This document shows positions 3,712 to 64,000 of a stretch of 64,000 nt of DNA, piece after piece. The position numbers and the translations under genes are program-made. Each line of letters starts with the position of its first letter. The stretch's first letter is position 1. Location of the stretch: the NCBI GenBank assembly GCA_004431415.1, contig QPMI01000244.1, positions 17,496 to 81,495 on the forward strand, in the 5' to 3' direction. Below the pieces are notes generated by a model. It saw only the letters and a list, made by a program, of their open reading frames with translations. It was not told the origin of the DNA and searched no databases. The stretch comes from Cyanophora paradoxa CCMP329. Its lineage: Eukaryota; Plantae; Glaucophyta.

Positions 3712-10969
<7,258 letters not shown>

Positions 10970-34140: not shown

Positions 34141-34271
34141 CCGCCGCCTGGCCATCATGTTGAAGTGATATGCACAAATTGAATGAATGGCGATGGATGC
34201 ATCGATACCCTACCTCGAGCTCGCGATCGAGCTCAGCTGCAGCTATCATAGTATAGCGCTAGCTATATATA

Positions 34272-41611: not shown

Positions 41612-42257
41612 CTCGTGAAATAGTAACATGTTGCAGCTCGCAGCTAAGATATATATGGGCACGCGTCCTTTGTATTCTCCAGCTCCTATACTTATAGTCA
41701 GACCCCTTATCGCAGGCCCTCCCGATCCATAGCATCTCGGATCCGGAGGCTCTGAGGCTCGTACCCCCACATTTATATATGTACTCCCGCATCCATGTTG
41801 TACTCCCGCATATGCATACACGCTGGACCCATAGCTATGTATATATAGCTATATAGGATTGATATCTTACACGATCTTGCTTGTAGTAGTCTAGTTGGTA
41901 TCATATCTTTCGAGTTTCGTTTTCGAGGCCGCCCGGTCGGTGAGCGCGTAGGCTAAATAGGCGCTCTGGCTTGAGGTTGGGACCTCAGTTCTTCTTCATC
42001 GTACACCGCTCTTATAAATAATCAGCTTAGCACACCACGAGCCTCTCGTCTCGTGAAATAGTAACATCCCCTCGGCCAGCCACGAGCCTCTAGTCTCGTG
42101 AAATAGTAACATCCCCTGTACGCCGTTCGACTTCTCTCAGAGTTTCTCAGTATACGTATCTTTCGAAATTCCTCAGCTTTTTGATTCCTTTATAATTAAT
42201 TTCGTATATTTATCCTAGTTCAGTGCGCGAGGACGCGCACTCGTGAAATAGTAACAT
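41612..42257 (+). repeat. Four copies of CTCGTGAAATAGTAACAT
   Basis: Copies start at 41612, 42050, 42095 and 42240; each is preceded by C(A/G)CGAG able to pair with CTCGTG. Confidence 0.9.
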
Positions 42258-42440
42258 GTTGCAGTAGGCATATACCTTCCCAAGTCCCTGTAGCCCTGTA
42301 CCCATATAGCTCAGTCCTCCTGTACCCCAATATACCACCTTGCCAGCTATCTAGCCTGGCAATACGGGTGGGAAGGGGTGGGGGGAGGGGGGGGGGCCTT
42401 CCCCGCGTGAGCGGGTGTCTTGTATATATATATATATATA

Positions 42441-45400: not shown

Positions 45401-46938
45401 TCGACAGCTGTCATGAATCAATTTCGGTCCTGACTTCCCTAAGACGACCGCTCTCCCGTGGGCGTCGAGCGAAAATCGAATTTCTCTCGCGGATCGATTC
45501 CGGTATTTATACCCCGGTTCGATCGCGAAACCCCAAAAAGTGGGACCTGGTCCCGCCCGGTCCCGCGACGAAACGCGCCAGGAATGCCCCAGAGCGGTAC
45601 AGAATGAGAGCCGAGGGCGCGCGCACTGCTGCAAGATCGATTTCGGCCGCCGTCGACACTCCAGTGCGAAGAGTCGGCCAAAACTTTGACCCAGCCGGTC
45701 CCGTCCGGTCCCGCCACGTGCACGCGCGCAATCGATGCGTTCTCGCGCGCATAGACATAGCACGGCCTGCACACTCCAGGGATCCGCTTTTCAGAGCCGG
45801 AACAGTGCAGGAAGGTGCCCGGCGGCGAAAATTCGATCCTGCACAGCCCCGGGCATCTTTCCGCGCGCCCACGCCGCGGCGCACGCGCGGAACAAAAGTA
45901 TAAGCATTTGAGATGTAGACGAAGCATTCCGCGCGCTTTGCAGATGCGCCGGGCCGCGAGGATCCAGCCGACCCCGAAAATTCGATCCTTGGCGAACCTG
46001 CCCATCTTTCCGCGCCCCCTCGCATCCTCACTGAGTCACGCATGCCCATCCCTACAGTATTCATTTGAAAGCTTTTCGTTGCTTTGCGCAAGCACTCTGG
46101 GGGCGAAAGAGCACAAGAACCCAGCCGACGCCAAATTTTCGATCCTGCACAGGCCTGCACATATTTCCGTGCGCCCTCGCCTCCGCAGCCCTCCACATTG
46201 ATAGTATATGCATTCGAGGTACTTTGCAAGAGATTCGCAAGCTCTACGCATGCGCCTGCCCGCAGGAACCTCGCTCCTCCCCTTAATGCTGAGGAGCTGG
46301 AGCTCCAGGTGAGATCTAGGGGGAAATATATATTCCCCCCTAGATCTAACCTCGAGCTCGAGCTCGAGCGACCAATATATTATATATATTTCCCCCCTAG
46401 ATCTCACCTCGAGCTCGAGCTCCGGCGACCAATACATATATATTCCCCCCTAGATCTCACCTCGAGCTCGAGCTCCACTGACGAATATATGGCGGCGATC
46501 GCAATGAATAAGGTGACGGCGGGCCGGGGGATCCGGAGGCTTCGAAAAAGCCCAACCTTTGCACACGCAAGCTTAACAACCCATGGCCAGGGCTTATTGA
46601 GTTAGGCACGGCGGCGGCGCGGCTCGCCGGGTGGAGCGGAGGCGCGCGGGGCAGCCGCCGGGCGCCGTGGCTCGCCGGGTGGGGCGCAGCCTCGGAGCGT
46701 GGCGGCCTGGCGGCGTGGCTCAGCGGCTTGGCAGACGGAGCGGAGACCCCAAGGGCGGCGGCGAGGCTCTCAGGGCAGGGCAGAGGCATGCAGGGTGGCA
46801 GCTCGCGGGCCAATGCTTGGCGGGCAGGCCATGGCGGAGCAGAGGATTGGAACGCTCGGGCGGGGTAGAGACAGGGTCCCAGCGAGGCTGAGGAAGCAGG
46901 CATGCATTGGCAGGGCTTACCACACGTGAGTGTGGGCT

Positions 46939-46940
<2 letters not shown>
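42441..46940 (+). mobile_element. Non-autonomous Helentron/Helitron2-like element C with internal ~1.3-1.4 kb tandem repeats
   Basis: 5' AGCCCTGCCAAT (42443-42454) is the exact inverse of subterminal ATTGGCAGGGCT (46906-46917); then hairpin CCACAC-GTGA-GTGTGG (46920-46935) and CTTG; about three diverged internal units (e.g. 42457 vs 43794) built from AATTCGATCCTG...TTTCCGCGCGCC subrepeats shared with A and B. Confidence 0.75.
46312..46478. repeat. 36-bp near-perfect palindrome plus three ~55-bp direct repeats
   Basis: AGATCTAGGGGGAAATATATATTCCCCCCTAGATCT (46312-46347); CCCCCCTAGATCT(A/C)ACCTCGAGCTCGAGCTC three times. Confidence 0.85.

Positions 46941-47012
<72 letters not shown>
46941..47012. 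repeat. (TA)36 microsatellite at the junction of element C and the viral island
   Basis: Read directly. Confidence 0.95.
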
Positions 47013-47014
<2 letters not shown>

Positions 47015-47374
47015 AGGGCCATCAATGGGCCAAACGCGAAAAGGCAACTCCGAGAGCTCGAGACTCGGAAGTGACGCTTGGATTGCGGAGGTTCTTATAA
47101 CCGCCGCAACAGCTGTGGGGGTACCCCCTCCGAGGCTGGCGATCGCGGCGATCGCGACCCGATCGCGACCCTGGTGATCGCGACTTTCTCCCGATCGCGA
47201 CCCTTTTCGATCGCGATTTCGAGATCGGGGCATTTCTGCGATCGCGAGAAAGGAAAAATCGGAAAAGGCCGAAAAGTGCGTTTTTCACGCGTGAAATCGA
47301 CCGAAAACGAGGGTTCGAATCCCGGGCCCGGATTTGGACTTGGGCAAAATCTCGGACTGAAATGGGAGAAAAAT

Positions 47375-47433
47375 GGGACCTGGGACTTGGGACTTGGGAC
47401 TTGGGACTTGGGACTTGGGACTTGGGAAGAGTT
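47375..47433 (+). repeat. (GGGACTT)6 module 1
   Basis: CCT(GGGACTT)6GGGAAGAGTT, about 50 bp upstream of ATG 47484. Confidence 0.95.
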
Positions 47434-47483
47434 GGAATCAGAGTCTGGACTCAAAACGGGGAAATTTTCGGAGGGGGAGAAAA

Positions 47484-48269
47484 ATGTCAGGCAATCTCTA
47501 TTACGATTTCCCCTTTGAGTTGCATATGGCATTCGAGAGGCTGCGCGAGTTCTGGCGTTGGCACCTCACAGGACATGACATTCCCGACATAACACCAGAG
47601 CCCAACACACAGGGCGTGCTTGAAGTCATCCGTCAATATCCGCGTCGATTCAATGAATGGATCGAGTTCCACGCAACGAACCGTTTCCAGAGTCTCCCCG
47701 AGGCCATACGCGAAAATTTCGTGAGGCTGGTGGGACCAGGCTACGACAACCCTAACAATCATAGACCACGCCCAGCTGGCGTGACGCGCGAAGCTCGAGA
47801 AGACCGTAGACTTTTCCGCAGGGAATTGAGAGAGGATAGACGGAGGCTTTCAATGGGGCTCCCGCAGATTGTGAGGGGTACAGCCCGGATTACGAGACTT
47901 ACCAAGAATTGTACGGCTTCGAAAATCCCTTTGAGAGGGTACTACCAGGGTGAGGGGCCAGGGGGGCCCCTGAGGGTGTACCCCCATCCGAGACTCGACC
48001 TTCGGCGGACGCACTCGGGCAATTTCCGTCAGGCCGGCTCCTTTTTCTGTCTTCGGTCCAACGCTAAATTTGGCTTTTTCAGGCCAGTTGGCAACGTTTT
48101 CCGTTGCGAACTAGCCCAGGAAAAAATTCGCCCACAAAACCGCGGTCCGCCGCCATTTTGCCTCACTCTTGAAACGGGTTCGCCGCCTTCTCTCAGCCCA
48201 AGGAAACCCTGCCTCTCCGAATTTTCACAAGTCCGCCCTCACAGTCACCTCACGTTTTGCCTTTGCTGA
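47484..48269 (+). CDS. Hypothetical viral protein (true stop may be earlier)
   Basis: AAAATG start; MSGNLYYDFPFELHMAFERLREFWRWHLTG... has protein-like composition for about the first 140 aa. Confidence 0.5.
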   Translation: MSGNLYYDFPFELHMAFERLREFWRWHLTGHDIPDITPEPNTQGVLEVIRQYPRRFNEWIEFHATNRFQSLPEAIRENFVRLVGPGYDNPNNHRPRPAGVTREAREDRRLFRRELREDRRRLSMGLPQIVRGTARITRLTKNCTASKIPLRGYYQGEGPGGPLRVYPHPRLDLRRTHSGNFRQAGSFFCLRSNAKFGFFRPVGNVFRCELAQEKIRPQNRGPPPFCLTLETGSPPSLSPRKPCLSEFSQVRPHSHLTFCLC

Positions 48270-48289
48270 TTTCTTTTCCCTTTGCGCAG

Positions 48290-49354
48290 ATGTCGATTCC
48301 CGCTGAGCTTGCCGAGGACTTCGCCTTTGTCCAAGCAACGTGGGCTAACTCCGGTGGCACTCAAGGGCTACCCCTGAGATGGAGCAGCGCGCCGACGCTC
48401 TGGGTACATCTACAATTATGCCATCTTACGCGCCACTGGCCCCGAAGTGCAACTTCTCCCCAAGTCCGCCTTCACGTCCAAGGCCAAGAAATCCAAGTCC
48501 AAGCAACCCAAGCCCGAGCCCCCCGTCGACGTGCCCCCGTCCCCGGCTGGGTCAAGACCGCCAACGGCTGGGGCGACCCCAAGCTTTTCGCCGAGTCTGC
48601 TGCCGAGACGCTCGCCTGGGCCTACCCCCTCAAGTCTTCACGAATTACCCCCTCCGTCATCGTCGTCATCTGCCCCTCAGCCCGTCGCCGAGCCCGCCCC
48701 GAGCCCGCCGATGACGCCAAGTCCGAGGCCTCTGACGTCGAGTCTGACATCAACGACTTCATCGACTTTGACGTGCCGATTCCATACGACTCTGAGTCGT
48801 CTTCTGACTCTGAAGGCGACAACGAAAACCCGACTCGCAAGCGCCGCATTATCAAGACCAAGTCAATCGTCAAGAAGAAGTTCATGGAGACTACGTCATT
48901 CACCGACAACTCCGAGCGCGTCAAGGACCCCGCCAAGGCACACGAGAAGGACTTGAAGCTCGGCGCCGGCATTGCCCGTTCTCGCGTGACGTCACACTAC
49001 AGCGAGCGCCTGACTCAGCACGTCAAGACCATTGAGAAGCGCGTCCTCTGCAACGAGCTCCGCAAGGAGTTGGAGCGCAAGCGGCGCCACGAGCGCCTTG
49101 TCCAGTACCAGATCAACAAGGCGCGGATCGCCGAGCGCAAGCAGAAGGAGGCGGCCGAGCTCAAGGCGCGCATCGAGGCTCAGCAGCAGCGCGAGGCAGA
49201 GGCGGCAGCGGCCTTGGCGGCGCAGCGCGAGCGCGAGCGGCAGGACTTGGTGCAGGCAGCGCAGTCCCTTCCCCGCATTCCCCTTAAGTCGGCGCCCGAG
49301 GGCCTCATTGAGTTGGTTTCCGATGACGATGACTCTGACTTTGAGATGCTGTAA
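48290..49354 (+). CDS. Hypothetical viral protein with acidic tract and C-terminal coiled coil; probable internal frameshifts
   Basis: MSIPAELAEDFAF...; strong C/G-ending codon bias; SDVESDINDFIDF acidic tract; ELRKELERKRR...EAAELKARIE coiled coil; TAA at 49352-49354. Confidence 0.65.
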   Translation: MSIPAELAEDFAFVQATWANSGGTQGLPLRWSSAPTLWVHLQLCHLTRHWPRSATSPQVRLHVQGQEIQVQATQARAPRRRAPVPGWVKTANGWGDPKLFAESAAETLAWAYPLKSSRITPSVIVVICPSARRRARPEPADDAKSEASDVESDINDFIDFDVPIPYDSESSSDSEGDNENPTRKRRIIKTKSIVKKKFMETTSFTDNSERVKDPAKAHEKDLKLGAGIARSRVTSHYSERLTQHVKTIEKRVLCNELRKELERKRRHERLVQYQINKARIAERKQKEAAELKARIEAQQQREAEAAAALAAQRERERQDLVQAAQSLPRIPLKSAPEGLIELVSDDDDSDFEML

Positions 49355-49425
49355 ATAGTATTGCGTCATTCCATTGTACATACTTGTAAAAATTGGCCGA
49401 CTATTCAGTTACGACTTGGCGCGAT

Positions 49426-49545
49426 CCTGGGACTTGGGACTTGGGACTTGGGACTTGGGACTTGGGACTTGGGACTTGGGAAGAGTTAGACTCAGGGTCT
49501 GGGCCCAGAATCTCTCTGGATCTGAGAGTTTGCCGCGCCAAGTCC
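49426..49545 (+). repeat. (GGGACTT)7 module 2, left arm of an inverted repeat
   Basis: CCT(GGGACTT)7GGGAAGAGTT plus ~55 bp similar to the reverse complement of 49861-49916. Confidence 0.92.
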
Positions 49546-49590
49546 CTAACCACCGGGCAGACATGTAGAGGGGTACGGAAATCTGCATAT

Positions 49591-49846
49591 GACGTTTCTG
49601 GTGACATTCCAGGTGAGATTTCAAGCGAGGTAGAGTCTGAACTGGTGTACGACTTGTAGCATGATACTGGACATGAAAGCTCACGAGAGTATGCAACCGA
49701 AAACGGATGTGAAGAGGGGTAGGAGTTTTCGTGTGAGATGTCGAGAGAAGGAGGGTACGAGATGGGATACGAGTAAAAAAGACTACGAGTAAAAAAGACT
49801 ACGAGTAAAAAAGAGTATGAGGAGTGGTAGGAGTAAAAAAGTCGGT
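49591..49846. repeat. 12-nt periodic array with invariant GA, followed by GAGTAAAAAAG 16-mers
   Basis: GA at 49591 and every 12 nt to 49771 (16 consecutive positions); then GAGTAAAAAAGACTAC twice and variants at 49803 and 49831. Confidence 0.9.
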
Positions 49847-49860
49847 AGAAAAACTCACCT

Positions 49861-50041
49861 GACTTGTCTGACAAATTTCTGATCCTGGAGAAAGTCTGGG
49901 CCGGGACCTGGGTTTCAACTCTTCCCAAGTCCCAAGTCCCAAGTCCCAAGTCCCAAGTCCCAAGTCCCAAGTCCCAAGTCCCAAGTCCCAAGTCCCAAGT
50001 CCCAAGTCCCAAGTCCCAAGTCCCAAGTCCCAAGTCCCAGG
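49861..50041 (-). repeat. (GGGACTT)16 module 3, inverted (right arm)
   Basis: AACTCTTCCC(AAGTCCC)16AGG at 49917-50041. Confidence 0.95.
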
Positions 50042-50062
50042 TTTTTCTGAACCTAGGGCAAA

Positions 50063-50428
50063 ATGGCCCTGCTCCGGTGCACCGACTCGCAAGACGTCGC
50101 CTACAACGTCCTGGTCAACTCGGACGTACCCCCGAGTGCCTTGGAGTTTCCCTGGAGAGTGGACAGGGACAGGGTGAGCAAGACGTTTGGAGGGCGCAAG
50201 CACTACCTCTCCCAGCTGATCCTCGGGAAGTCGCCACGTGGACGCTACGTGGAACACATCAACGGCAACCCGCTGGACTACAGGAGGGAGAACCTGCGCT
50301 GGGCATCAATGTCGGAGATTCGCAAGAAGAGGAGGGGGTACGCCAATTTACAGGAGAAGAGCGAGGAGATTCGGGAGATGATGGAGGCGACACAGGTGCT
50401 AATGCAGCTTAGCCAGTCTAGACGCTAG
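50063..50428 (+). CDS. HNH-family (phage HNH_3-like) protein, probably catalytically degenerate
   Basis: YLSQLILG...VEHINGNPLDYRRENLRWAS versus the typical VDHINGNxLDNRRxNLRxxT; intact 121-aa ORF with AAAATG start. Confidence 0.8.
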   Translation: MALLRCTDSQDVAYNVLVNSDVPPSALEFPWRVDRDRVSKTFGGRKHYLSQLILGKSPRGRYVEHINGNPLDYRRENLRWASMSEIRKKRRGYANLQEKSEEIREMMEATQVLMQLSQSRR

Positions 50429-51227
50429 TGGTGTGAATCTTGGTGTCGTACTCGCGACCGACCGTTTCCCAGGCCACGTAAACTTCGGCTCCGGCGCCTG
50501 GCGCTGTCGAGTTGGTAGTCGCAGTCGTGTAGTCCGCCTCTGCCTCAATTAGTTCGGCCATGAGGGTAGAGCCCACGACCATTCCAGAGGTAGGCATTCC
50601 GGCGATGTTGTTGTACAATTTGAAAGTGAATTTCGTGAAGAGGAGCCGGGGCCAGACCTGGGTACGGGATTCGAGGCGCCGTATGAATAATCGGTACCCG
50701 AGGCGCCGCCCGTGGTGGCATTCGTCATCATCTCCTTTGCGGTCATCTTCCAGAGGTTGTACATCTCAAAGGGAACGGCCTGCGTGGTCTTGTGTGTGGC
50801 ATCGATGAGGGCGCCATCTAAATGCGTTTTGATGTTCGGATTCGCACCATTCCCGAATTTGCGAGTGAGGGCGGTGTTAGCGGTGAACTTGAGTTCGAGC
50901 ACGCGAATGGCGGGCCGATCAGGCACAGAGGGCTCTATCTTTTTCAGGAGGCCCGAGAGCCAGAGCGCCTCCGCCTCATCCGCGCTCACGCCCGAGTCGA
51001 TGTCAAAGTACACGTACACGGAGCAGGAGGCGGGATTCTCGAAATCGTTGGAGGTGACGCGCAACATGACGGGATTCTGGACCCTCACGGTGAGCGGGGT
51101 GGCGTAGTTTCCGTCCCACTCCACCTTGTCCGTCCCTGCGTTGGCCACGTTCCAGCGTTGCCGTAGAAATCGGGACGATCGAGCCGGCAGACACGGTCTT
51201 CACGATGGTGGCCGAGGTGGTCGGCAT
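50418..51227 (-). CDS. Hypothetical viral protein, paralog 1 (frameshifted)
   Basis: AAAATG start; core VRVQNPVMLRV..N....P...VYFD...VSADEAEALWLSGLLKKIEP....IRVLELKF. Confidence 0.6.
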
Positions 51228-51236
51228 TTTGCGACC

Positions 51237-51927
51237 TCAAATGAGAAAGATTATCCGTGAAAGAGGGTGATGTCGCCACGATGTTCATGACGCGGGCCCC
51301 AGGCACAGAGTCAGCGTCGGTGCCGTACGCGTAGGAAATCGAGCACTCACGCAGCTCCGCGCAGAGGCTGGCGCCCGTGCTGAAGTGGGGCTGGTCGGCG
51401 GCGTAGGAGAGGGGGAAGACCTGGAACCTGAAAAAGGTGAAGGGAAGCGGGTAGAGTCGAGCCGCGTGGGTTGCCGCCCGTGTAGAGGGCCCCCAGGGTC
51501 GCGGGACTTGGATTGAATTTCGTGAAGAGCACGTCGCCCTTGAGCGTACCCCTCATCTGGTAAGTTCCCGTACCCGGAAGATTCGAAGAACTGGGGTACC
51601 GGTTCACGGTGGGGCCGTACCCCGTCTCCTGAACTTGACCTCGAGACAGCGCAAGACGTTGGCAGTGGCCGTGGCAGGTGCCACCTTTTTCACGAGTCCT
51701 GATTCGTGCAGCAGCTCGATAACCTCTGCGCTGAGGCTCAGAGGGTCGAAGAAGAGCTGGTAGGAATAAATCTTGGGCGTGGCGTAGGCGTTCTGAACGA
51801 CCTGAATCACGACGGGATTCTGCAGAAAGACGTCGACGTAACTGCCGGAGGGTATGCGTGCGAAATCCTTGGTGTTGTTGCCAACGTCAAGTGAGCCGCT
51901 GAGGGTCTGGTACCAGTTGGAAGTCAT
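51237..51927 (-). CDS. Hypothetical viral protein, paralog 2 (frameshifted)
   Basis: TAAATG start; core VFLQNPVVIQV..N....P...LFFD..LSAEVIELLHESGLVKKVAP....LRCLEVKF. Confidence 0.6.
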
Positions 51928-51965
51928 TTACCCCGGGCAGATATTTTTTCGGATCGTAGAGGAAA

Positions 51966-54096
51966 ATGCCCCGCTTCGTATTCGTGAAAAAGCAGGTGGT
52001 GCAGGCTCCGCAGTATGGCGTGGAGCCGATCTCGCTGACTGTGGGCAGGCCCCAGGTGCGATCGGGCTCCGTGCTCAACAACGGGAACAGTACGTACGGC
52101 TTTCAGCTGAACTGGGTCGCGGTCACCAACGCCGTCAAGTACAAGGTGTACAGGGCGACCAGCATCAACGGCCCCTGGGATCTCGTGGCCACGGTGAATG
52201 CGCCAACCGTCACCTACACGGACTCTCCCTTTAGTTTGGGGCCCAGCGACTCTACCGCGTGGCGGCGGTTCGCGAACAGGGCAGCAGCAGCACGGGCTCT
52301 GATGGCAAAGCCCCGCCCACAACCTACGCACAGTCGCTTCTCTACACCCACGAGGGTGCCATGAGCAATTACATTCTCTTCCAAGGCATAGGCGGCTTCA
52401 GCCCGCAGATCGAAGCCTACACCACGCTCACGACCGCCACGGCCCAGACCTACGGCGATTTTATTGCCGGGGCGGCCCCGCGTCTTCGGGCTTCCCGAAA
52501 CCCGCCATAGTCGTCACAATCAACTGGGTGGCCATGGAGGCGCGGACTCGATTCGAATTTACAGGAACGGTACGCCAATCGGATTTGCGAGCAGTGCCCT
52601 GTCTACCTCGTACATTGACGATAGCACTGCTCTTACGTGGGGCACGGAATACTCTTACCAGGTGGCCGGCATCGTGGGCGGTGTCGAATACGACAAGTCC
52701 GATCCGCTCCTGGTCTGGACTATGCCAAACGCCCCACGAACGTGACGGCATCAGCACCCAACGACCAGCAGCAGCCTGTCAGCCTCAGCTGGACTGCGTC
52801 CACGGGAGCGACGGGATACAAGATTTACAGAGACGGGGCCTACCTCACAGACTCCGCGACCAACTCCTACAGCGACACGACCACCGTCTGGGGTACAGGG
52901 TACGAGTACCAGATCTCCGCGACGAACACGGGAGGGAGGGGCCGAAGAGTATTGCGGCGTACGTCACCACGGACCCGGGGGCGCCCACTGGGCTCACTGC
53001 AACCCCCGCGGCGGGGGCAGCACAGCCTGTTGTGCTCGAGTGGTCGGTGCCGGTGACGGGCGTCACCGTCTCCTACAACATCTACAGGGGTGGCGTGTTC
53101 CTTGCCAGCGACACGAGCAGCCCCTTTTCGGACACAACGACCGTTTACGGAACCACTTACACTTACACCATCAAGGGCGTCAACCAGATCGGCGAGGAAG
53201 GCCCTCAGTCCTCGTCTGCCAGTGCAACAACTGCAAACGCTCCTGTTTTGGGTACATTCTCCTACACCGGGGCCGACCAGACTTTCGTAGTACCAACGGG
53301 GACTGTGGCTGTGCGTGTCATCGTATGGGCGGCCGGGGTGGAGGCGGAGAACGCGCAGGTACGGGGTCCGTGGAGGCGCGGGTGCTTGCGTAGTTGGTAC
53401 ATTGGCTGTGTCCTCGGGGAGACGCTCATCCTTGTTGTTGGATGCGGCGGCCCAAAGGGTGTATCGGGACTGCCACTGCTACCGTCTACGGAGGTGGTGG
53501 AAGGGGCTGGAGCCATAGCGTCGATCCGGAGTACAAAAACGGCGCCGGTGGTGGTCGTTCTGCAATTCAGCGCGTTGCAGGGACCGACTTGGTTGTTGCA
53601 GGGCCGGAGGTGGGGGTACATGTGATTCGAATGGCGGCGGGGGAGTAGGCGGGGGTTGACCGGTGGTGCGGCTGGGTTGGTTGGAGTAACCGGAGAGATA
53701 CCGGCTCAAGGAGGCACCCAAACCGCTGGCGGAGCCGGTGTTGTGGCCTCAGGGGCCAGGCCCAGCAACCCGGGAACTTTGCGCCAAGGTGGAGAGACTG
53801 GGCCTGATTCAAGCGGCTACAGGTTCGGTGGTGGTGGTGGTGGTGGTTACTTCGGTGGAGGCTCTGGGTCCAGCAGGAGCGGAGTGTCAGAGAACCCAAT
53901 AGCAAGAATGTTTGGAGGTGGCGGTGGCTCGAGCTACATAGGAAACTTGACGGATGCTACGGTGTATCCTGGGTCCGGCCAGGTGGCAGGAAATAGCGGA
54001 GACGCTCACTACGCAGCAGGCATTGGTAGGGGCGGCAACGGTGGCTCGTCTTTCAGCGACGGTGGCAACGGTCGAATTGTGATACTCGCGGTGTAG
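51966..54096 (+). CDS. About 4 fibronectin type III repeats plus C-terminal glycine-rich domain (virion fibre/adhesin-like); several frameshifts
   Basis: LNWVAVTNAVKYKVYRATS; IRIYRNG..YIDD..TWGTEYSYQV; LSWTASTGATGYKIYRDG..YSD..YEYQISA; LEWSVP..SYNIYRGG..YTYTIKGVN; then FSYTGADQTFVVP...GGGGGGYFGGG...GGGGGSSYI...GGNGRIVI*. Confidence 0.85.
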
Positions 54097-54116
54097 TTAT
54101 TCCTAGTTGTTCCAGA

Positions 54117-55170
54117 TCAGCTCGCCAGTGCCGCTACCTGGTCTTTGAGAGTTTGAACTTCTTGTGAAAGTTCCTGAATTGCCTTCAACGACAGGGAAAT
54201 GAGCCTGTCGTAGTTTACCCCGAGAAATCCATCCGCGTTCTCGAAAACGAGACTCGGGAAGACGCCTTGGACTTCCTGTGCGATGAGACCGTAATCCGTT
54301 TTCGAACCCCCGAGGATGTGTTCTTCCAGGTGAACGACACGGGATTCAGCTGCAGCAGAAGAGGGAGAATGCCCGACATGCTCGCGACATTTTCTTTCAG
54401 GCGGCTATCGCTCGACGAGTTTGTCAGGTATCCTTGAGCATCCGAATAAACGGCTCGGTTTCCATCGCCCGTGAGCGTCGAGACGATGAGCCGACCCGTG
54501 ATGCCAACGCCGACGGTTCCGCACAGCAGTCGTTCGGTGCCGTTGTTTCTCAAGGATAGACCAGAGCTGACGCTTCCGCTATCAACGATTGAAGTGTTTG
54601 CTATGCTTAGGCCATTAGTAGGGCCTTCGATTGCCGAGGTAAATAGAGTACCTGTAACACCAACGCCAAGAGTCCCACAGAGGAGTCTATCGTTTCGTTG
54701 TACTTTATAGCTACGCCTGAACCACCGCCATTTATGTACGGTGACGTTCCGGTAATTTGCAGCTTATCGTCCAATGTAACGATGCCGCCAAGTTTGAAGC
54801 CCCGCTCACCCTAAGCCCCCCACCACGTTTGCTCCGCCTCCTTGCACATACAGAGCCGCATTCCCCTCCCGTTCACAGTCCCATTAAAGGTCACCTGATT
54901 CGTGGTGTACCCGCTCCCGTCCCAGGCCCCGTTCGTGACGGTGAGCCTCTGCGTCCTCACGCGCCCCGGCACGGCCGACCCGCCTCCCGCGTGCGCATCT
55001 TGTCGCAGCGCAGCTCGCCGACGCGGACGAGGTCGGCCTCGGAAAAGGGACGGCCGTGGCGTTGTAGGGGCCTCGGTGGCCTGGTTTCCGAGGGTGGTCT
55101 CCTTAATCGTGTGATCGCCCTTGTGATTCACGCTGGCAGCATAGGTAAATAGAGGGACAGCGACCGACAT
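54117..55170 (-). CDS. Fibre protein with C-terminal peptidase S74 intramolecular chaperone; frameshifted
   Basis: SSDSRLKENV...LLQLNPVSFTWK...YGLIAQEVQGVFPSLV...LGVNYDRLISLSLKAIQELSQEVQTLK; duplicated RLLCGTxGVGxTG segments upstream; AAAAATG start. Confidence 0.88.
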
Positions 55171-55194
55171 TTTTGGATTGCATCAGAAAATCGA

Positions 55195-56170
55195 TTACAT
55201 AAGCAGCTTGCCGATCGCGGTCCAATGAATAAAAAGCTGGACAATTTGGGTGGGCGTGACCGTCATTCTGGGTTGGAATCTCACTTTAACTGTAAAGCCA
55301 GTGTGACTCACCGCCGTGACGTTGGCCCCGTAGAAATCGACATCCGTGCTGCCGCCGGATTGATGTCGAACGAGGGGTTACGTTAATAACCGGCGTTGGG
55401 TTTGCTGGGGTCCCCAGTCCGCCTCCAGTGTCGTACGCCTGTCCGAATGTAATGTTGAACGTCACCGTGTATGTTGAATTGATGTTAAACTCCGTGTACG
55501 CAGCGTAGGAGTGGAAGGACGTGCCGTGCGTTATGTACGCATCCATGTTCACGTTTCTGTGCCCGTGGCTGGTGAGCGAGTACTCTGTGTGACTGTGCGT
55601 AGAGGGTGGGAAGGAAGTGGGTCGGTCGATGACATTATCCCAGTACACATTGTGACTGTGTGTAGAGGGGGGAAGGTAAGTGGCTTGCCCGTTACGTTGT
55701 CCCAATCCACGGAGATGTTCGTCAAGTCCGGGGCCGTCCAGTCGCTGATCTGAGAGATGGTGTGCTGGTGGTCTGCGTGGGATACGTACTCGGCTTCCCC
55801 GTGATGCTATCCCACGCCCACGTTGTTGGTATCACGGGTATCGTCGGCCTCCCGCTGAGATCTGCATACGCCCCGTGTGTGCCACCGTCGCCAGCTGCGG
55901 CACGGCAACGCCCACGGTGCTCACGGCCTGGCTCGCCCCCGGCGCCATGTGCCACTCGTAGTTCTGCGATGCAAACACGGGCTGGCCTGGCTCGGGCGCC
56001 CAGTACTCGATGCCTTTGGCGATCTTCTTGGTGTATGGTGCTGCAGGCCTGTCAACCAATTTATCGACGTAGGCCTTGGGTACCAGCCAGTTTGCCTTGG
56101 GGCTCTGCGAATTGATCCCGTTGTCTATGAAGGCCCGTAATTCCTGAAGGCCTCGGCCTCCCACCAATCC
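55195..56170 (-). CDS. Tail-fibre-like region with phage fibre repeats and gp53/H-lectin-like C-terminus; may be the 3' end of the upstream giant gene
   Basis: LATVAHTG.YADLSGRPTIP; WDSITGKPSTYP; WDNV..RPTSFPPSTHSH-type repeat twice; VTFNITF..AY..PVINVTP..NVTAVSHTGFTVKV..HWTAIG; TAA at 55195-55197. Confidence 0.75.
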
Positions 56171-59100
56171 TGCATGCGGAAGGTCCCGGAATCTCGAGGC
56201 GCGAGTTGGCGTCCGCCAGGCGGGCCACCTGCGCCCCTCCGTTCGACGAGACGCCCGAGTGACGGATGGCCGAGCCGAATTCGCGCCTTAGGGCTTCGAT
56301 GTGATTGATCCTGTTGAGGCCCTCCTGGTAGACGGCAATTAAGACGCGCTTCCGCCCTTGGTCTCCTCCTTTATCATCTGCTTCAGGTCGCGCATAAGTC
56401 GACTCAGGGCGAGCGAAGTCGACCCGAAGCCTCCTGCATTTTAACGGTGAGCTGGAGAGGAAGAGCACGGTCGCGCGATCGATTTCGAGCAGGGTCTTCT
56501 GGTCCTTGGGGGTACGGTAATCGTTGATGCTGTTGTCGAGCGCGCGAATGAAGGCCTGCAGCTCCTTCGGCTCCTTGATTTCGTTTAACCGCAGCTCCTG
56601 GGCCAAGAGCGAGGCCATTTCGCGCGCCTCCGAGGGTCGTACACACCCAAAATCCGGAGCCCAGCTCGCCCTCCAGCCGATTAATTCGGTTGCGCAGCTG
56701 GCTCGCCTCGTCGCCCCACGTCTCGACGCCCCAGTCGTAGATCTGTTGCGAGAGCTCCGCGATGAACTGTATGGTGTCGGTCGCCCAGTCGACGGGGTAC
56801 TTGAAAAAGTTCTTCACGATTTCTTCCGCGCTGCGCCCGTTGATGATATCCACGATCACCTGCGCGATGGCGCCCGCGAGGATGGACAGGCCAAGTCCGC
56901 CCACCGTGCCGATCCTCATTTTCGTGAGGGCGCTCAGGGCGGACGACATGCCCGTCTGAAGGCCAAAAGAGCCGACCGTCATGATCATCTGATCGCGGAA
57001 CGTATCGAAGAACTCGCCTCCCTATCTTGCCCTGCGAGAGCGCCTGGTAGGCCGAGAGCAGCCGCCGGCCGTCGCCAGCCAAGGCCCGCCGCCGCCGCGC
57101 CCGCCCGCCGCATGGCCCGCGAGCCCGTACCCCCGAGCCCGGCGCCCACCAAGTCGATGCCCGCCCCCTGAAATAAATCGGCTGCCCGAAAGACATGCCG
57201 TCGTTGTTCGCCGTACCCGCCGCCGAGAAGAGCGTCTCGGCGCTGAGGGCCTCCTTGGCCACCCGGGCCGCCTTGCCCTCGGGCGCCCCAGGTACGCGTC
57301 GCGCTGCTCTTGGTGGTGAATCGCTCGAGGTCGAAATCGGCGAGGGCGTCGGCGGTGGCGCGGTTCCAGTCGCCGTAGGCATGAGGCGTTGCGCAAAATA
57401 ACGTCCGAGTCGCCCATCACGCGCCTGTCGAGCGTCTGAAACACGCCCTCGGAGGGCAGGCGGGCGGTGCCGGGCGCATCTCCTCCACGGAAACGTCGTC
57501 CCTCTCCGCGAGTGTGATGTCGTCTGGGCTGGCCAAGCCGACGCCGCGCCCTCATCGGCGTACGCCCTTCCCTTCGTTTTAATATTTGATTGGCCTCCCG
57601 TTTCAATGCTTGGTACTCTGTCTCTACCTTGGTCTTTCTTGCCTCTTCCTCTGCCGCCTTGCGCTCTGCGATCTTCCGCCTCTGCTCTTCTATCTCGGCG
57701 TTGCGTCTCGCCGCGTTCTCCTTCGCCTGCTGCTTCCGCTCTTCAATCACCCTGTTTGCGTACTCCTTGTCCGCTTGGGCCTTTCTGTAGCGCTCCTCGA
57801 TCTGACTCTTGCCTCGTCTCCTCTCTTCCTTAGATCGCCCATGAATGCCGTCGTATCTATGTGAATCTTGTATTTGGCGGTGGGTGCTCACGTTTGAAGG
57901 CCTCCAGATCGCGCACCATGGCATCGTACTGCGCGAGCCCCTCCGCTGGAATGATGGCTCTTCGCATTTCCCAAAATTTGCTCAGCTTGCCCACGTAATC
58001 GACCATGGAGAGGTACGCGCTCTGTGCGCCCGCGCTCACCGTTTTCGGATTGGCTCGCAGCTCTGCCACAAACTTTCCCTTTTGCATCCGGTACAGTGAC
58101 CATTCGAGGGCTCCCCGCCATAGGCTCACTTCCGTCCGCAGTTCGCGGTGCATCTCCTCCACGTCGCCGTATGCTATCCAGATGGCATCGCTGATGGGCT
58201 CTGAACAGCCTGACGCTCAAAGTTTTTCCACTTCTCATCGGCCATCTTTCTCCTCAGTTCTTCGGCGTCTTTCTGACCCCTTCCCGTCAGCTGATCCATA
58301 ACGTAGCTAAAGTCGCGCATGTTCTCTTCCATGGCGCGGACCCTGTCCCCGATGCATTTCTTCTTTCAGTTTTTTGAGCTCCGAGCGGTAAAAATCCATC
58401 TGCGCCCCCTGAACGTCTCCAGTCGTCGCTTACGCTCCGCTACCTTCGGCTCCTCCAGCCGTGCAAATTCCTCGTCTGATGCAGTTTGCATTGCCTTCAG
58501 TCGTTCTCTTCTGTCTTGGCAGCTGCCTCCTCGTCCGCCCTGCGCCGCTGCTCTAACGCGTCGAAGAGGGCCCTCTGATCCTCGAGCGTGAGGCCAATGA
58601 GCTCTTCCACCTGGTCGCTCCTACCCAGCCGCGCGAAGGCAGCCTCTCGGCGGCCGGCCTCGGATCGGGCCTCGGCGTCGTCTGCGTCTCGGCCGTCCCA
58701 TGGGCGAGCGAGCCTCTGCCGTGGCCGCGTACTTGAGCAGCCTCTGTGCCAGCTCGTCCGCGTTGGCCTTGAATTTTTTCGACTGCTCGTCCGCGCGCTC
58801 GGCGGCCTCCTTTAAATTTTTGATTTCTCCCGGAGCCTGTTCGCCTCCTGCACCGCCCCGTTTGCAGCTCTCCTGCCTTTCTCCTCGTTTCCTCTTCTCT
58901 TCCAGCAGCTGCCTTCTCGTCTCTGCCTCCTTTTCCAATTTCTTCTTCCTATCCTCGATCTCTTCCTCTGCGCCTCAAGCAGCTCGGTGCCTGCGGTCAG
59001 CGCTTCAATTTCCTGCAGCTTTTTCGCCTTGGCGGCTTCCTTTGCTCGTTTATCCTCTTCAGCTCCTCCTCGGCGTCGAGTATCTTTTCGTGCGCTCTTC

Positions 59101-60334
59101 CGCGACCTGGCGCTCTGCCGACCTTAGCGCGGTGAGGGCGCTCTCTTCCTGCCTTTGCGCGTCTGTCATCAGCTTGTTCGCTTCCGCCTTCTTCTCCGCG
59201 ACCTCTGTCATTTCCTTGTCTTTCAGCTCGCTCCATTGCTTCTTTTCGTTCTCGAGTTTGTAGTACTCGCGCTGCGCGTCCTCGGTATCGAATTTAATGG
59301 GGGTCTCGCGTTCAGCTCGTCGATTTGCCTCACGAACCCCTTCCGATCCTTGTAGTATTGATGCGCCTACGATGAGGGCGCCCCGAAGATGGCCGTTGAA
59401 GTGGCGAGCCTGCTACCTTATCATGCCTCCCGCCTGAGCCGCCGCACCCGAGCCGCTGCTGCCCCGCCCCGCCCACTGGCGTGCCGCTGGAGCCCCTCCG
59501 CCCCCCGTGCCTGTACCCCCACCCCGGTGCCTGTACCCCCACCCCCGGTGCCTGTACCCCACCTCCCGTGCTTCCACCACCCGTACCCCACCGGAATCGC
59601 ACCCGGCACCTTGGGCCGCCGATGATGTCGTCGTACAGGTGCGGTGCGCCCAGTCCGTGATGTCGGCCTTCACGTGCGGGTGCTTGACGAGGGCGTACCT
59701 CTCGTCGTGGAAGTGGTCCTTCAGCGCCCAGTTCTGCGTCTTCGCCCAGTCCGAGCGATCGGGGAGCACGTCGGGCGCCGTTGGGATGCGGCCCCGCCCG
59801 TCGTCTCCGGCGTCTCGCCCGTCCTGTCGGCGCTCAGGGCGCGGATGTTGACCTTGAAGTGGTCGAACCACGCGAAAAACTCCTCCCTGTCGCGCCTGTA
59901 CTGCTCGGGCTCCATGCTCGGCAGCGCCTGGCGGCTCCAGTAGATGTGGCGCAGGGGCCCGCGATGCGCTCGAGTGCGTTGTACCCGGCCTCACGTCTCC
60001 CTCTGCCCCTTTAGAGTCAGTTTCACGAGGTTCAGGGTGGCATCCTTTGCGGTGACCGAGTTTGCGATTTTCACGTCGGCCGCCCTCTTGATAATGTTCC
60101 AGTCCACGCCCGTCTCGGTCGTCACGCCCCAGAGCCCCTGATAATTGCGGTGAGGTCACGTAATCGTCCAAGGTACCGACGGACGTCAGGAATCGCTGTA
60201 GGTCGCGCCTTGCGCAGCCTTATCTCATCCGCGTAAATTCCCCTCACGCTCAGGCTCCCGTCTATCGCGAAGGCACCGTTCAGCACCTCGTCCGGATTCG
60301 GATGGCCATGCGCAGGGTCGTCGAGCATCGACAT
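56171..60334 (-). CDS. Very large coiled-coil protein (tape-measure/core-like); heavily frameshifted
   Basis: TAAATG start MSMLDDPAHGHP; HPHVKADITDWAH fibre-type repeat; GTGTGGG linker (~59510-59590); >1.5 kb of E/K/R/A heptad-like sequence; hydrophobic IGTVGGLGLSILAGAIAQVIVDII segment. The single-gene model is inference. Confidence 0.55.
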
Positions 60335-60353
60335 TTATCCGCGAGAGAGAAAA

Positions 60354-60818
60354 TTAACTAATGCTCGCGTCCCACGTCCACTTCAGCTTGCGCTCACCTC
60401 GCCCGTTGTCCAGCGGCCCACGGGCACTGCCAGAAAACGTCGGCGTAGGGGTAATCGGCCTGATAGTGATCTGCTCGTCACGCAGCCAGCGGTAGGCCTC
60501 GAGGCGTCGCGAATCTTTGGCTCCAGTATTCCCCACCGTGCCGTTCGCAGCGAGTACCCCTCCTTGCTACCGTACCTGTAAAAGTGATCGCCCATTAGCG
60601 TGTCTACCCCCTGTACTCGAATTCTACGATTAAGGCCAAGTCCTGCCATGCGCTCTCACCGAGACGGATGTGACTGAGGCTGTGCAGCAGCCCGTATTTA
60701 ATTGGACCAGAGGCGGTTACAAGATCGACTCTGTAAGTAAGGGGAGGGGTAGCCAGGCACGCCCGTAAAGGTACGCGTCTTGACGCCGAGCCTTTCGCGG
60801 GAATATGATCAGGCGCAT
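60354..60818 (-). CDS. Hypothetical viral protein (frameshifted)
   Basis: TAAATG start; overlapping ORF fragments join to ...KLKWTWDASIS*. Confidence 0.45.
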
Positions 60819-60847
60819 TTAAGGGGGCCTGCGAAAATCTAGTCGGC

Positions 60848-61291
60848 CTACTTAGCGTAGGCCCAGAGGCCGAAGTTCTTGACGATGAAGGCGTTGTTCT
60901 TCTTGGTGGCGCCCGTGATGTCGGTGAAGCGCACGCGCAGCTCCTGGAATTTGTCGTACGCGACGTAATTCGGGCGCACGGCCATGGGCACCTCGAACCA
61001 GTAAAGGATGTGTTTTCCAGGCCGTCGTGGCCCACGTCGGAATCACGACCTGTTGATGCACGCGTTCACGTTCGAGATGGTCGTGACGTTCAATCGGGCA
61101 CGTCCATCAGCAGCACGTTTACGGTTTTCGCGGCGGTGGGGTCCGGAATCGCGGTCGTGTCCAGCTCCAGGTAGACTCCCTTGATCTGCAGCGTGTCGAT
61201 GTCGGAGGGGATCTGGTTCAGCCTGAGGCGCCAGAAGCCTCGGATCCTGCGTCTCTCCGTTCGACTGGACGTAGAGGTTAACGCAGGACAT
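60848..61291 (-). CDS. Putative minor capsid (penton, single jelly-roll)-like protein, ~145 aa; frameshifted
   Basis: Joined fragments MSCVNLYVQS..FWRLRLNQIPSDIDTLQIKGVYL..VLLMDVP.LN...VVIP...KFQELRVRFTDITG...FIV show alternating beta-strand pattern and a late strand ending in DxxG, as in PLV/NCLDV pentons. Confidence 0.5.
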
Positions 61292-61878
61292 TATTTAGGG
61301 CCTTAGGAGGGCTGAGAATTAAGCCGCTTCGGTCCATGTTCAGGAGGGTGGGCCCACGAAGTAGTAGCCCGCGAATTGTGCGAGGAGGATCCGCAGCAGG
61401 TAGTACGCGCGGGCGACATGTACGCAACGGCGCGAGGGTCAGGAGGCTGCCAGGTAGCGCGAATCGCTGAGGATGTTGTCGAGCTCGGCAGGACATCATT
61501 CTCGGTTTAAGGCCCTTCAGAAATTTACTTGGGCATGAAGAATTCCTGACGCGCTCTCCCTCCTCGTGCAGCGCCCACTGCAGCGGTCGATGACGGCGGC
61601 CATCACGGGCGGGCTCGCGGCGGGGTTTTTCGCGTACGCCTGGCGTCCTCTGCATCTGGGGGTGGTACTGCTCGACCCGCTTGGCGTAGCTCGCGATGGC
61701 GCGGCGGGTGCACGATCCAGGTCAGCCGCCATTTCCGCCGGTGCCTTCGGCTGCTGCTGCTTCTTTCGCGCGTAGTCTAGAAGCCAAGGTAGGCCGTGGT
61801 GCTGCTGCTGGTGCTGGTGTTGGTGGACGATTGATCCTCGGCGCTGGGGGCTGGTGTCGCGGGAGTCTCCATTTCCAT
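61292..61878 (-). CDS. Hypothetical viral protein (frameshifted)
   Basis: MEMETPATPAPSAEDQ...; fragments AIASYAKRVEQYHPQM, KFLKGL, VAYMSPA, YYLLRILLAQFAGYYF (hydrophobic C-terminal helix). Confidence 0.4.
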
Positions 61879-62153
61879 GTTCTCTAGAAAAACGCGTACC
61901 GGTCTGCGTCATCTGAATGTCCACGTGGTGCGGGCCTATGTTCTGACGCTCTCGGCCTCTGCTCGGGGGGGCTCGGCTGGGCTGCCCGCGGCGCACGACC
62001 CTAAGGGCCGCCGCTCAGGGCGCCAGCACGGTGTTGGGGCGCACTCGCTCCGTGCGCCAGCAGTCGGAAATCAGGAGAGCGCGCCGCATACGACGGTGAT
62101 GACGTCCGAGTGGGTGCATCCCCCTGGAACATCTTGCGGGCGCGTCAGATTAA

Positions 62154-63262
62154 TTAACGCGGCCCTGCCCCTTCCGCGCCCCTGCCCTTTCCGCGCCGCG
62201 GCCCAGCCTCGATCTCGGCGGCTGCGGCGCGAAGCGCGGATCGTCGAGGGGCGGACTCCGTCTGGAAGATGGAGAAGAGGTAGCCGTCCGTGTTGTTGTC
62301 GGTGTTATTCTGGTTGCGCGCGTGCGACCACTGCTTCAGCAGGTCGCGCCGCTGCGTTCGGGCAGCGTCTTCGTGAGGTATCCTGCAGCCGCCCGCCGTA
62401 ATTTCTCCGGAATCAGCTCGGCGAGGATGGTGGGCGGTCTTTCCCATGCGTTCTCCCCCGTTCAGGTCGTCGATGAGCTCGCGTTCTGCAGGATTCTCTC
62501 CGCGTCTGCCCCGCCTCTTGCTGCAGCTGCTCACCAGCCTCCTTCCGGCTCCGCGAATTTGCGCCAGAATTTCGCCACCTCTCGTAGACGGTTGTCGTAC
62601 CCGGCTCCTTTTCCTTGAGTACACGACCCAATGTACTTTGCCCAGAGCACCTGCAGGTTCGATATGTGGTCGATCGTGACGAGCACGTGGGCGTGCAAGC
62701 AGCGTCGGTCGGCCCCACTTCCACGCCCCCTGCACGCGAATTCCGATGATGGCGTTTGAAAGGTATCGTCCTTGTACTTGCCGTCCTCTTCCTTTAAATT
62801 AATCGAATGAACTTGTAGAATTCGGCGTCGAGAGCACTGGGCCAGGCTGCCGCGGAAGGCCTCCACCTCGAATTCTCTCGCGGGCCAGCCTCTTGTGTGT
62901 GTTGAAGAGCACCAGTACGCGACTGGCGCGCCTGTCGAATATCGTAGCGCGTGCTGCCGTCGGCGTTCTTTTTGTTGAGGATGAAACCGAGCGGCCGTCT
63001 CGTTGATTTCGGTGATGACCTTTTCGAGCGCTCAGCCCGTTGGCCCTCGCGGCTGCAGCCCGTTTTCGTCTTTTCTATGTTCTCCCTCACTCGTCGATTT
63101 CCTTAGGATCTCGTCGATCTGCTCATGTCGGGCGCGGCGATATCCTGCTTCCTAATTTTCCTGGCCGAACCCGGCGCGATGGTCGATGGCCGAAGGCGGC
63201 GGCCATATCCTTGGCGGATTTCGAGGCCTTCGTCTTCGGGCCGCCCAGCACCGTCTGCGCCA
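62154..63262 (-). CDS. HUH-superfamily rolling-circle endonuclease (Rep-like); frameshifted
   Basis: Motif I-like VLFNTHK (~62892-62912); GVEVGP then LHAHVLVTIDH (HUH at ~62681-62698); catalytic-type YLTK (62369-62380), all in canonical order. Start uncertain. Confidence 0.78.
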
Positions 63263-64000
63263 TCTGATTCTGCGCCTGCGCCGACACGGCGTGGTGTCGC
63301 CCTCTTGCGCCGCTGCAGCCAAATTCGCGAGGAGGCCGCGATCGTCCAGGAATCGGTAGCACTGCATGCAGAGCCACGAGTTCTTCGGGTACACCGGGGG
63401 CAGCTGCGCGGGCTTCTTGTCTTTGATCGGGGGGTACTTGTTTTTTGGCCTTTGCGCCTTCGCCCACTCGTTTGCCTTGTCGACCTTTTTCGCGTAATCG
63501 GCGTACGCGGCCTCCTTCTTCGCGGTCGCCTCCGCGACGGCCTCCGCGGTGCCCTTTTTGCGGGGTATGCTCGGGATTTCGTACATGAGGCGCAGGCAGC
63601 GGTAGCAGACGGGCGGCGATTTTTGGGCGCTCTGGAAGGCGCGCGGGATGGCCCGCAGGCGCTCCTCGGGCAGCGCGTCGTAGAACTGCTTGCTGTGGAT
63701 GCTCCAGAACGTGGCATCTTTGTAGTAGGCGTCGAGCGCAGTGGTTTCCGGTACCTGCACGCGCGTGATCGGATCCTCGAGAATTTTAACTACATCCGGG
63801 ATGCCCTTCTGCATTTCGATGATCTGCCCGTTTTCGCCTCGACCAGCACGGCCCGCTTTGGAATTTCGACTATGGGCATATCGAGCTCGTTGTATTTCTT
63901 TTCCTTCATCTTCTTCCCCCGCTTCCCCTTTGGCTTCGGCTCATCCTCGGCCTCTTCCTCTTCTACCTCTTCCTCTGATTCCGATTCTGGCTTCTCCTCT
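63152..64000 (-). CDS. Hypothetical viral protein with acidic/basic tract and two CxxC motifs; 5' end outside window; possibly fused to the HUH gene
   Basis: EEKPESESEEEVEEEEAEDEPKPKGKRGKK; PVCYRC and WLCMQC separated by ~75 aa. Confidence 0.55.

Follow-up and report, generated by a model that had tools for sequence, protein, structure and literature searches.

All mriyaviruses carry an HUH endonuclease (PMC11253617), and the Mriyaviricetes are further recognised by a double jelly-roll major capsid protein (MCP) that falls in the mriyavirus clade and by a genome of 35–45 kb with genes for an A32 packaging ATPase, VLTF2, VLTF3, RuvC, PDDEXK, Mriya_48/50/51 and a helicase. Gamadviruses place a short HUH gene directly upstream of a long one, HUH_long (PMC11253617), and mriyaviruses are described as having no integration genes (10.64898/2026.06.19.733378). 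The mriyavirus-like Polinton-like viruses (PLVs) Zora/VC102 and VC218 are recognised by MCP and ATPase phylogeny, by Mriya48 and RVE, and by genomes of 20–30 kb with terminal repeats (10.64898/2026.06.19.733378). Here we describe a 64,000-nucleotide stretch of the glaucophyte Cyanophora paradoxa CCMP329 (contig QPMI01000244.1, positions 17,496 to 81,495, forward strand; the window), in whose right part, 47013–64000, an HUH gene stands among virus-like genes. These genes represent a real endogenous viral family resembling a mriyavirus-related PLV, and the block is probably a small double-stranded DNA virus, related to mriyaviruses and integrated into the host genome, with an HUH protein that would nick an origin for rolling-circle replication.

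Viral DNA in this alga is already in print. The C. paradoxa genome contains 366 MCP genes, divided between two new clusters, 21 (272 genes) and 29 (94 genes), and six example proteins gave HHpred matches to ascovirus, iridovirus or prasinophyte-virus capsids (PMC10120064). Among 156 glaucophyte PLVs, an A32 ATPase was recorded in 139, rve in 85, pPolB in 49, HNH_3 in 40, S74 in 37 and D5_N in 40 (PMC12220804, Table S6). Fibres with S74 or tail repeats are common in PLVs, and one C. paradoxa PLV fuses two tail repeats to H_lectin, the same layout as the window fibre gene at 55195–56618 (PMC12220804). Mriyaviricetes-related regions are embedded in a Glaucocystophyceae assembly, and glaucophyte sequences appear in the Mriyaviricetes MCP tree (10.1101/2025.04.19.649669); yaravirus-like endogenous viruses are known from Phaeocystis (PMC12480563). 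An earlier note on the window had proposed an integrated mriyavirus-like virus. The glaucophyte host, the eukaryotic-virus character and the mriyavirus-type HUH protein all stand, but the novelty was overstated, the preprint having already placed mriyavirus-related regions in a glaucophyte assembly. At the level of the family the claim has thus been reported; what is new is the compact zinc-knuckle HUH_long branch, its patchy presence and the gene pair that we call A and B.

A compact HUH endonuclease and its relatives

The HUH gene spans about 640 codons at 62155–64000 on the minus strand, its start lying about 24 codons past the window edge (model P0003), so that the upstream position at which gamadviruses have their short HUH gene falls outside the window. 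It combines an acidic start and two CxxC knuckles (63607 and 63370) with motifs I–III (VLFNTH at 62912, LHAH at 62698 and YLTK at 62380), all intact, in line with the HUH endonuclease of the earlier note. The gene, read in one frame, matched 7 proteins among 7,994 candidates; the EukProt records of five of these comprise four C. paradoxa accessions and one model of the window's own gene, in agreement with the glaucophyte host first suggested. A profile search of 1.84 billion representatives returned 10 HUH matches: C. paradoxa gene models account for 7, and the other 3 are Logan proteins measuring 611–724 aa. Proteins of this family share the acidic start, the two knuckles and the HUH domain without a helicase, and no helicase Pfam domain was found in P0001–P0007, P0009, P0010 or P0012.

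Gamadvirus HUH_long (Mriyaviricetes; PMC11253617) has the same HUH domain family, the R-x-x-RQS lead-in to motif I, the E-x-G...H-x-H and Y-x-x-K signatures and two upstream CxxC knuckles. The family profile aligned with HUH_long at 97.6% (E 4e-12) and with the short HUH at 97.1%, while a profile of 16 gamadvirus HUH open reading frames (ORFs) scored 67 bits on gene model P0002 and 4.7 bits on the raw frames. The E, H-x-H and Y-x-x-K columns are kept in gamadvirus and Logan rows. Judged from these alignments, the HUH domain belongs to the mriyavirus family, and the block thereby shares with Mriyaviricetes an HUH endonuclease with motifs I–III.

There are also differences, among them the high-copy endogenous state of the window family. 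HUH_long measures 1,590–1,890 aa against about 640 here (611–724 in the Logan relatives), the two differ by a helical insertion between motifs II and III, and the window family forms a separate branch (99/97 in an unrooted tree). That tree was built from short (8) and long (6) HUH proteins of gamadviruses, from 3 Logan relatives and from 2 C. paradoxa gene models; it omits the near-duplicate locus L008, includes no Yaraviridae or Zora rows and contains one long branch. Each group fell on one side of a branch (99/98, 99/96 and 99/97), the last of these being the compact family's own. With an HUH protein of about 640 aa outside the clade of HUH_long (about 1,600–1,900 aa), the element is not a gamadvirus by the features tested.

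Both CxxC knuckles were present in 6/6 gamadvirus long proteins and in 5/5 family proteins examined, whereas the pattern of the first knuckle occurred 3 times in 826 other ORFs. In the six full gamadvirus HUH_long proteins (IMG/VR L005–L007, L009–L013) the two conserved knuckles fall in a stretch described as uncharacterised in the mriyavirus paper; it is likely to be a zinc-binding domain. An HUH-core alignment retrieved 1 IMG/VR contig from 71 pattern matches; it carries tandem HUH genes of 270 and 1,819 aa, together with A32 ATPase, VLTF3 and YqaJ genes, matching the gamadvirus layout (PMC11253617). Scans of IMG/VR with P0002, A3, A5 and A7, and of JGI with A3 and A5, gave no relative, and only HUH-core alignments reached gamadvirus contigs. 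A Logan HUH domain scored at best 0.89 in the Atlas, against unnamed clusters, and searches with PDB profiles returned nothing significant for the HUH protein, gene A or the penton-like gene. A Walker-A-like word at 62459 was rejected as being out of frame within the HUH gene.

Replitrons and Helitrons likewise place an HUH enzyme in a repeated eukaryotic element, but the window HUH has HAH rather than HUQ, no GYxxK and no fused helicase, and it is accompanied by many virion-like genes (PMC10288648). A Replitron was rejected on HAH, EYLTK and VLFNT in the window against the HUQ motif II, GYxxK motif III, SUTU motif I and transposase-only make-up of Replitrons, and no Replitron-like proteins were found in glaucophytes (PMC10288648). 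A Helitron or CRESS-DNA virus was rejected as well, since the family proteins end 55–95 residues past motif III with no fused SF1/SF3 helicase.

A gene block repeated in conserved order

Contig counts were taken from the gene-model names listed, one name per sequence, and are minimums. They place the HUH gene on at least 9 contigs, the penton-like gene on at least 29 and gene A on at least 38, with at least 54 marker-bearing contigs in all. Contigs with HUH models include tig00000217, tig00021441, tig00000552, tig00020852, tig00000367 and tig00000270. The penton-like gene and gene A lie within 10 gene numbers of each other on 14/15 shared contigs, HUH and the penton-like gene within 3 on 6/6, and HUH and gene A within 9 on 4/4. 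The gene block is therefore repeated in conserved order on at least 54 contigs. These counts show many loci and are not independent confirmation of the window locus, because the models probably come from the same assembly. High copy number was overlooked in the first reading, as were the zinc-knuckle front half of the HUH protein and a pair of tandem paralogues at 50.4–51.9 kb.

The first of these paralogues, gene A (50418–51227, minus strand; model P0032), encodes a beta-rich protein of 270 aa that is highly conserved and is the most widespread marker of the block. Gene B (51251–51927, minus strand) is its paralogue (hhalign 97.0%, E 9e-11, 37% identity over 71 columns). Of the 15 clusters found for gene A, C. 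paradoxa accounts for 13; the other 2 come from ENA or Logan and show 61–67% identity. All 8 Atlas rows shown for it are picorna-like single jelly-roll capsids, at a score of 0.78 with low recognition, which is within reach of shuffled proteins; this weak evidence hints at a capsid-like protein, a lead only. An AlphaFold2 model from a shallow alignment failed (pLDDT 34.8); with it, Foldseek gave 0 viral matches at E<=0.001 and VIA-align none at Z>=5, and because the model failed these searches are uninformative on the fold.

The penton-like (minor capsid-like) gene of 149 aa lies at 60848–61291 on the minus strand (model P0053) and is found in 16 clusters, of which one, from Logan/ENA, shows about 85% identity. 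The gene is present as the earlier note had it, but the likeness to a penton is judged by eye, and no significant PDB or Pfam match supports it; hhalign to a gamadvirus minor capsid candidate gave 0.2%. Three small ORFs, two of them hydrophobic, follow at 61290–62130 (minus strand; pieces of models P0054 and P0061, with a start context at 61872). P0009, P0010, P0012, P0026, P0027, P0059 and P0082 are relatives that come from Logan and ENA assemblies and do not belong to the C. paradoxa gene set, with identities of about 25–34% over window frames for HUH, 61–67% for gene A and about 85% for the penton-like gene.

The remaining genes were assigned by Pfam matches judged against the cut-off and by PHROG profiles for phage-type genes, and here the catalogue of the earlier note proved sound. 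An HNH_3 endonuclease lies at 50063–50428 on the plus strand (PF13392, E 1.9e-7, above the cut-off; PHROG HNH E 9e-8). Three fibre or adhesin genes follow genes A and B. The first, an adhesin-like gene (51966–54096, plus strand; Pfam and PHROG), has fibronectin-III repeats (Pfam fn3 E 4e-4 and 6e-3, below the cut-off; PHROG matches to E 2e-9) and a glycine-rich C-terminal domain. A fibre gene at 54117–55170 on the minus strand ends in a Peptidase_S74 chaperone (PF13884, E 3.8e-6; PHROG tail fibres to E 2e-17), and another at 55195–56618, also minus (start context at 56618), joins phage-tail-like repeats to a C-terminal H-type lectin (H_lectin E 0.009, below the cut-off; weak PHROG matches). 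Fibre genes of the S74-chaperone and tail-repeat kinds, a general PLV feature, are thus present in the window. A large gene at 56630–60334 (minus strand, about 1,200 codons if a single ORF runs across the frameshifts) comprises a glycine linker, an E/K/Q-rich coil and a hydrophobic C-terminal part. In its best frame these three residues make up 0.20–0.31 of the stretch at 57.4–59.5 kb, in keeping with the giant coiled-coil protein that had been claimed; the product is likely to be a virion protein. A small ORF at 60383–60649 (minus strand) has no assigned function.

Short-read contigs of 4 runs gave 224 indel rows against 50045–64000, and all 12 rows shown are inserted letters, mostly at full depth in both DNA runs. 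On this ground we attribute the frameshifts largely to assembly errors (long-read indels); the gene models probably step over them by means of their 'introns'. The stretch is wholly or partly contained in 20 of the 24 runs listed, which come from 16 studies and bear a single organism label. The short-read contigs over 50045–64000 are spread across every identity band (140/120/89/19 in run X1). Contig depth in run X1 is about 3,000–8,700 for the majority of the structural genes and drops to about 1,370 at HUH, and in run X4 it is 207–776 over 58.4–61.7 kb and 235 over HUH; with no single-copy baseline, neither was used for copy number. No run recorded as RNA is among those listed with the stretch. 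Two runs guessed to be RNA reach a contig depth of 240–540 over the penton-like gene against <=30 over most other covered parts, values that cannot rank genes and were not used. Contigs of run X4 omit 754 nt of the coiled-coil gene at 58690–59445, and other joints omit 320–530 nt in the fibre genes; these skipped stretches are length variants among copies.

The candidate left border and its flank

To the left of the block, at its putative border, stands a (TA)36 microsatellite at 46941–47012 (100% pure), a candidate insertion target. The TA run is as the earlier note described it, but the sharp switch claimed there is not seen in base composition: the GC content is 0.70 in 1–34 kb, 0.60 in 34001–46940, 0.56 in 47013–50044 and 0.60 in 50045–64000, so that the drop from 0.70 lies near 34 kb and not at 47013. 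Nor do intron-rich host genes reach up to the TA run. Host-type genes were recognised left of 34 kb, with carnosine N-methyltransferase, a LisH protein and ATP synthase subunit a among them (3/66 ORFs scanned), and 34–47 kb is instead a nest of dispersed repeats.

Within this nest (34200–46940), units of 1.3–1.5 kb with 149-nt subrepeats, 64–97% identical, border on short TA runs, for example at 34264, 35801 and 42423, and are probably TA-targeting non-autonomous transposons. A long intronless ORF inside it (38164–39879, plus strand) has no Pfam match and is possibly a gag-like retroelement gene, an impression only. A second long AT run of 52 units (8575–8678) has no viral genes adjoining. The ATP synthase subunit a domain (31110–31775, minus strand; PF00119, E 2e-17) lies in GC-rich nuclear context, and we presume that it is an organelle gene transferred to the nucleus, probably cyanelle atpI.

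At the candidate left terminus, 47013–47370 (plus strand) contains repeated GATCGCGA palindromes with the potential to form a long hairpin (DNA fold of -79.8 kcal/mol, z -3.4, with 0/100 shuffles as good). We infer that this end is a candidate origin or terminus. Two ORFs on the plus strand follow, neither with a Pfam or PHROG match or an assigned function: 47484–48269, a member of the element by position only, and 48290–49354, with a C-terminal coiled coil. Immediately 5' of the ATG at 48290 stands a splice-acceptor-like pyrimidine tract and CAG (48265–48292). These left ORFs may be spliced, or part of a separate element. At 49428–50039 a 7-nt unit forms two arrays in inverted orientation, of 7.7 and 16.7 copies, whose flanks are similar; the left 0.5 kb contains another array. 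The translation of 49404–49493 is identical in 30/30 residues to the tail of gene model P0037 on another contig (tig00021441), and because of this exact recurrence the element extends left to at least about 49.4 kb, giving a supported span of at least 14.6 kb.

A probable endogenous virus related to mriyaviruses

The window family is probably among the published C. paradoxa endogenous PLVs (clusters 21 and 29 of PMC10120064; PMC12220804), with which it shares host, HNH_3, S74 and PTR-PTR-H_lectin fibre genes. The term HUH is absent from the main texts of both papers, and genes A and B are undescribed in the parts of them covered; nowhere in the texts searched is an HUH gene named for C. paradoxa elements, although figures and preprint supplements may name one. 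HNH_3, S74 and D5_N each occur in 24–26% of glaucophyte PLVs, and cluster 29 accounts for 26% of the MCPs; from these matching percentages the family could be cluster 29 with a D5-type helicase, which is a lead and nothing more. The preprint 10.1101/2025.04.19.649669 likewise finds mriyavirus-related DNA embedded in a glaucophyte genome, but the text of it that was available gives no HUH, gene list, copy number or locus, and it reads the insertions as mainly accidental, whereas the window block is expanded in conserved order. Compared by description only, Zora/VC102, VC218 and VC134 PLVs resemble the window in their PLV-style block, an HUH gene in part of their members and a mriyavirus link; they differ in coming from metagenomes and in mostly carrying RVE or a tyrosine recombinase and Mriya48, neither seen in the window, and the main text describing them does not mention glaucophytes (10.64898/2026.06.19.733378).

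Under the reading that we favour, the HUH tyrosine would nick an origin and initiate rolling-circle replication with a viral or host helicase. Genes for a double jelly-roll capsid, a packaging ATPase and a helicase would lie to the right of the window, a placement suggested by the 366 MCP genes and by C. paradoxa PLVs with similar HNH, S74 and lectin-fibre genes. The fibres, the penton-like protein, A and B and the coiled-coil protein would be virion parts for attachment and entry. Because many more contigs were found with the structural genes than with HUH, replication modules may be interchangeable on a common structural block, HUH being one among several. Copies would have multiplied through successive integrations, in this case at a TA run, and no enzyme for this step was recognised in the window.

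Several points weigh against this reading. No MCP, ATPase, helicase or integrase was recognised in the 17 kb of 47013–64000, where four short motifs of the published C. paradoxa MCPs and a credible Walker A are likewise absent; the earlier note, too, had recognised no MCP, packaging ATPase or integrase in the window. VLTF2, VLTF3 and Mriya_48 were not seen there either. Among 23 ORF families common to at least 3/8 gamadvirus contigs (some of them antisense artefacts, with no MCP family identified), only HUH matched the element, and the other 22, ATPase and VLTF3 included, gave no match in a test that is blunt on frameshifted frames; such absence from raw frames is weak, because HUH itself scored so little there. 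The link to a capsid gene is indirect: one example MCP (PMC10120064) lies on tig00020936, which also carries a penton-like copy identical over the query, yet with 366 MCP genes a shared contig is weak evidence. When a profile of the front half of the HUH protein was compared with two gamadvirus long proteins, the best of 200 shuffled controls outscored it, so kinship there rests on the knuckle patterns and their order. Both AlphaFold2 models failed, that of HUH (P0002, again from a shallow alignment) at pLDDT 30.6. Finally, the low number of HUH gene models could also stem from gene calling that suffered from the heavy frameshifting of this gene.

Other explanations fit parts of these data. 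The element could be a full member of Mriyaviricetes, of 35–45 kb, with VLTF2/3, RuvC, Mriya_48/50/51 and an MCP in its right half, and be among the regions of the 2025–26 preprint. The HUH family and knuckle architecture agree with this, as do the glaucophyte sequences in the Mriyaviricetes MCP tree (10.1101/2025.04.19.649669). We think it rather unlikely: across 17 kb none of the other gamadvirus families tested was detected, the HUH protein falls outside both gamadvirus clades, and structural genes were found on 3–4 times as many contigs as HUH, whereas all mriyaviruses carry it. An HUH gene, which the earlier note took as a mark of Mriyaviricetes, is not exclusive to mriyaviruses: among PLVs it occurs in about half of the Zora/VC102 members and in 28% of VC218. 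Alternatively, HUH might also act in integration, joining single-stranded viral DNA into TA runs with no need of an RVE or tyrosine recombinase. The border at a TA run beside a hairpin-forming end, the lack of an integrase in the window, the lack of integration genes in mriyaviruses and the mobilisation of Helitrons, IS91 and Replitrons by HUH enzymes (PMC10288648) would all suit such a role; it is unlikely nonetheless, given that most copies of the structural block seem to lack HUH, that rve occurs in 85/156 glaucophyte PLVs (PMC12220804), that neighbouring unrelated repeats also sit at TA runs and that the right end lies outside the window.

Two further readings fare worse. That the virus has no double jelly-roll capsid, A and B being instead two single jelly-roll major capsid proteins of a virion unlike those of PLVs, draws on their tandem paralogy, their conservation and the 8/8 picorna-like Atlas rows; with a score that shuffled proteins can reach, nothing usable from fold searches, and penton-like, fibre and 366 double jelly-roll genes that favour an ordinary build, we regard it as very unlikely. 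A bacterial phage or other contaminant brought in by misassembly is the least credible, scarcely to be entertained. Phage-like fibre and HNH domains speak for it, but HUH, gene A and the penton-like gene have no match in 50,697 phage records and HUH none in GTDB genomes, the block stands on 54 contigs, one organism label covers 20 runs, and such fibres are common in PLVs. A tailed bacteriophage was rejected for want of a terminase, portal, HK97 capsid, Shine-Dalgarno starts or phage homologues of the core genes; starts are A-rich, with Shine-Dalgarno-like words at 2/11 against a background of 10%. Neither these start signals nor the searches with the core genes point to a phage contaminant.

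At its boldest, the integrated-virus reading would make this a glaucophyte mriyavirus-related lineage with dozens of copies and no RVE or tyrosine recombinase, in which the compact zinc-knuckle HUH (a third deep branch, possibly near the form that preceded the gamadvirus duplication) replicates by rolling circle and inserts into TA microsatellites, HUH-less copies are mobilised in trans and two tandem capsid-like proteins are unknown in other viruses; the combination strikes us as quite unlikely. Surprise is in any case limited, since such elements in C. paradoxa are already in print or preprint. Rolling-circle replication of mriyaviruses and their relatives is a prediction, only yaravirus has been isolated, and the way in which such viruses come to lie in host DNA has yet to be settled. 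An alga that grows in culture and has dozens of ordered copies, part of them with HUH and many seemingly lacking it, would allow tests of nicking, circles, induction and the route of integration, and would put a freshwater glaucophyte virus on the continuum from PLVs to giant viruses. If the boldest reading is true, the lineage could be induced and put to the test in a model alga kept in culture.

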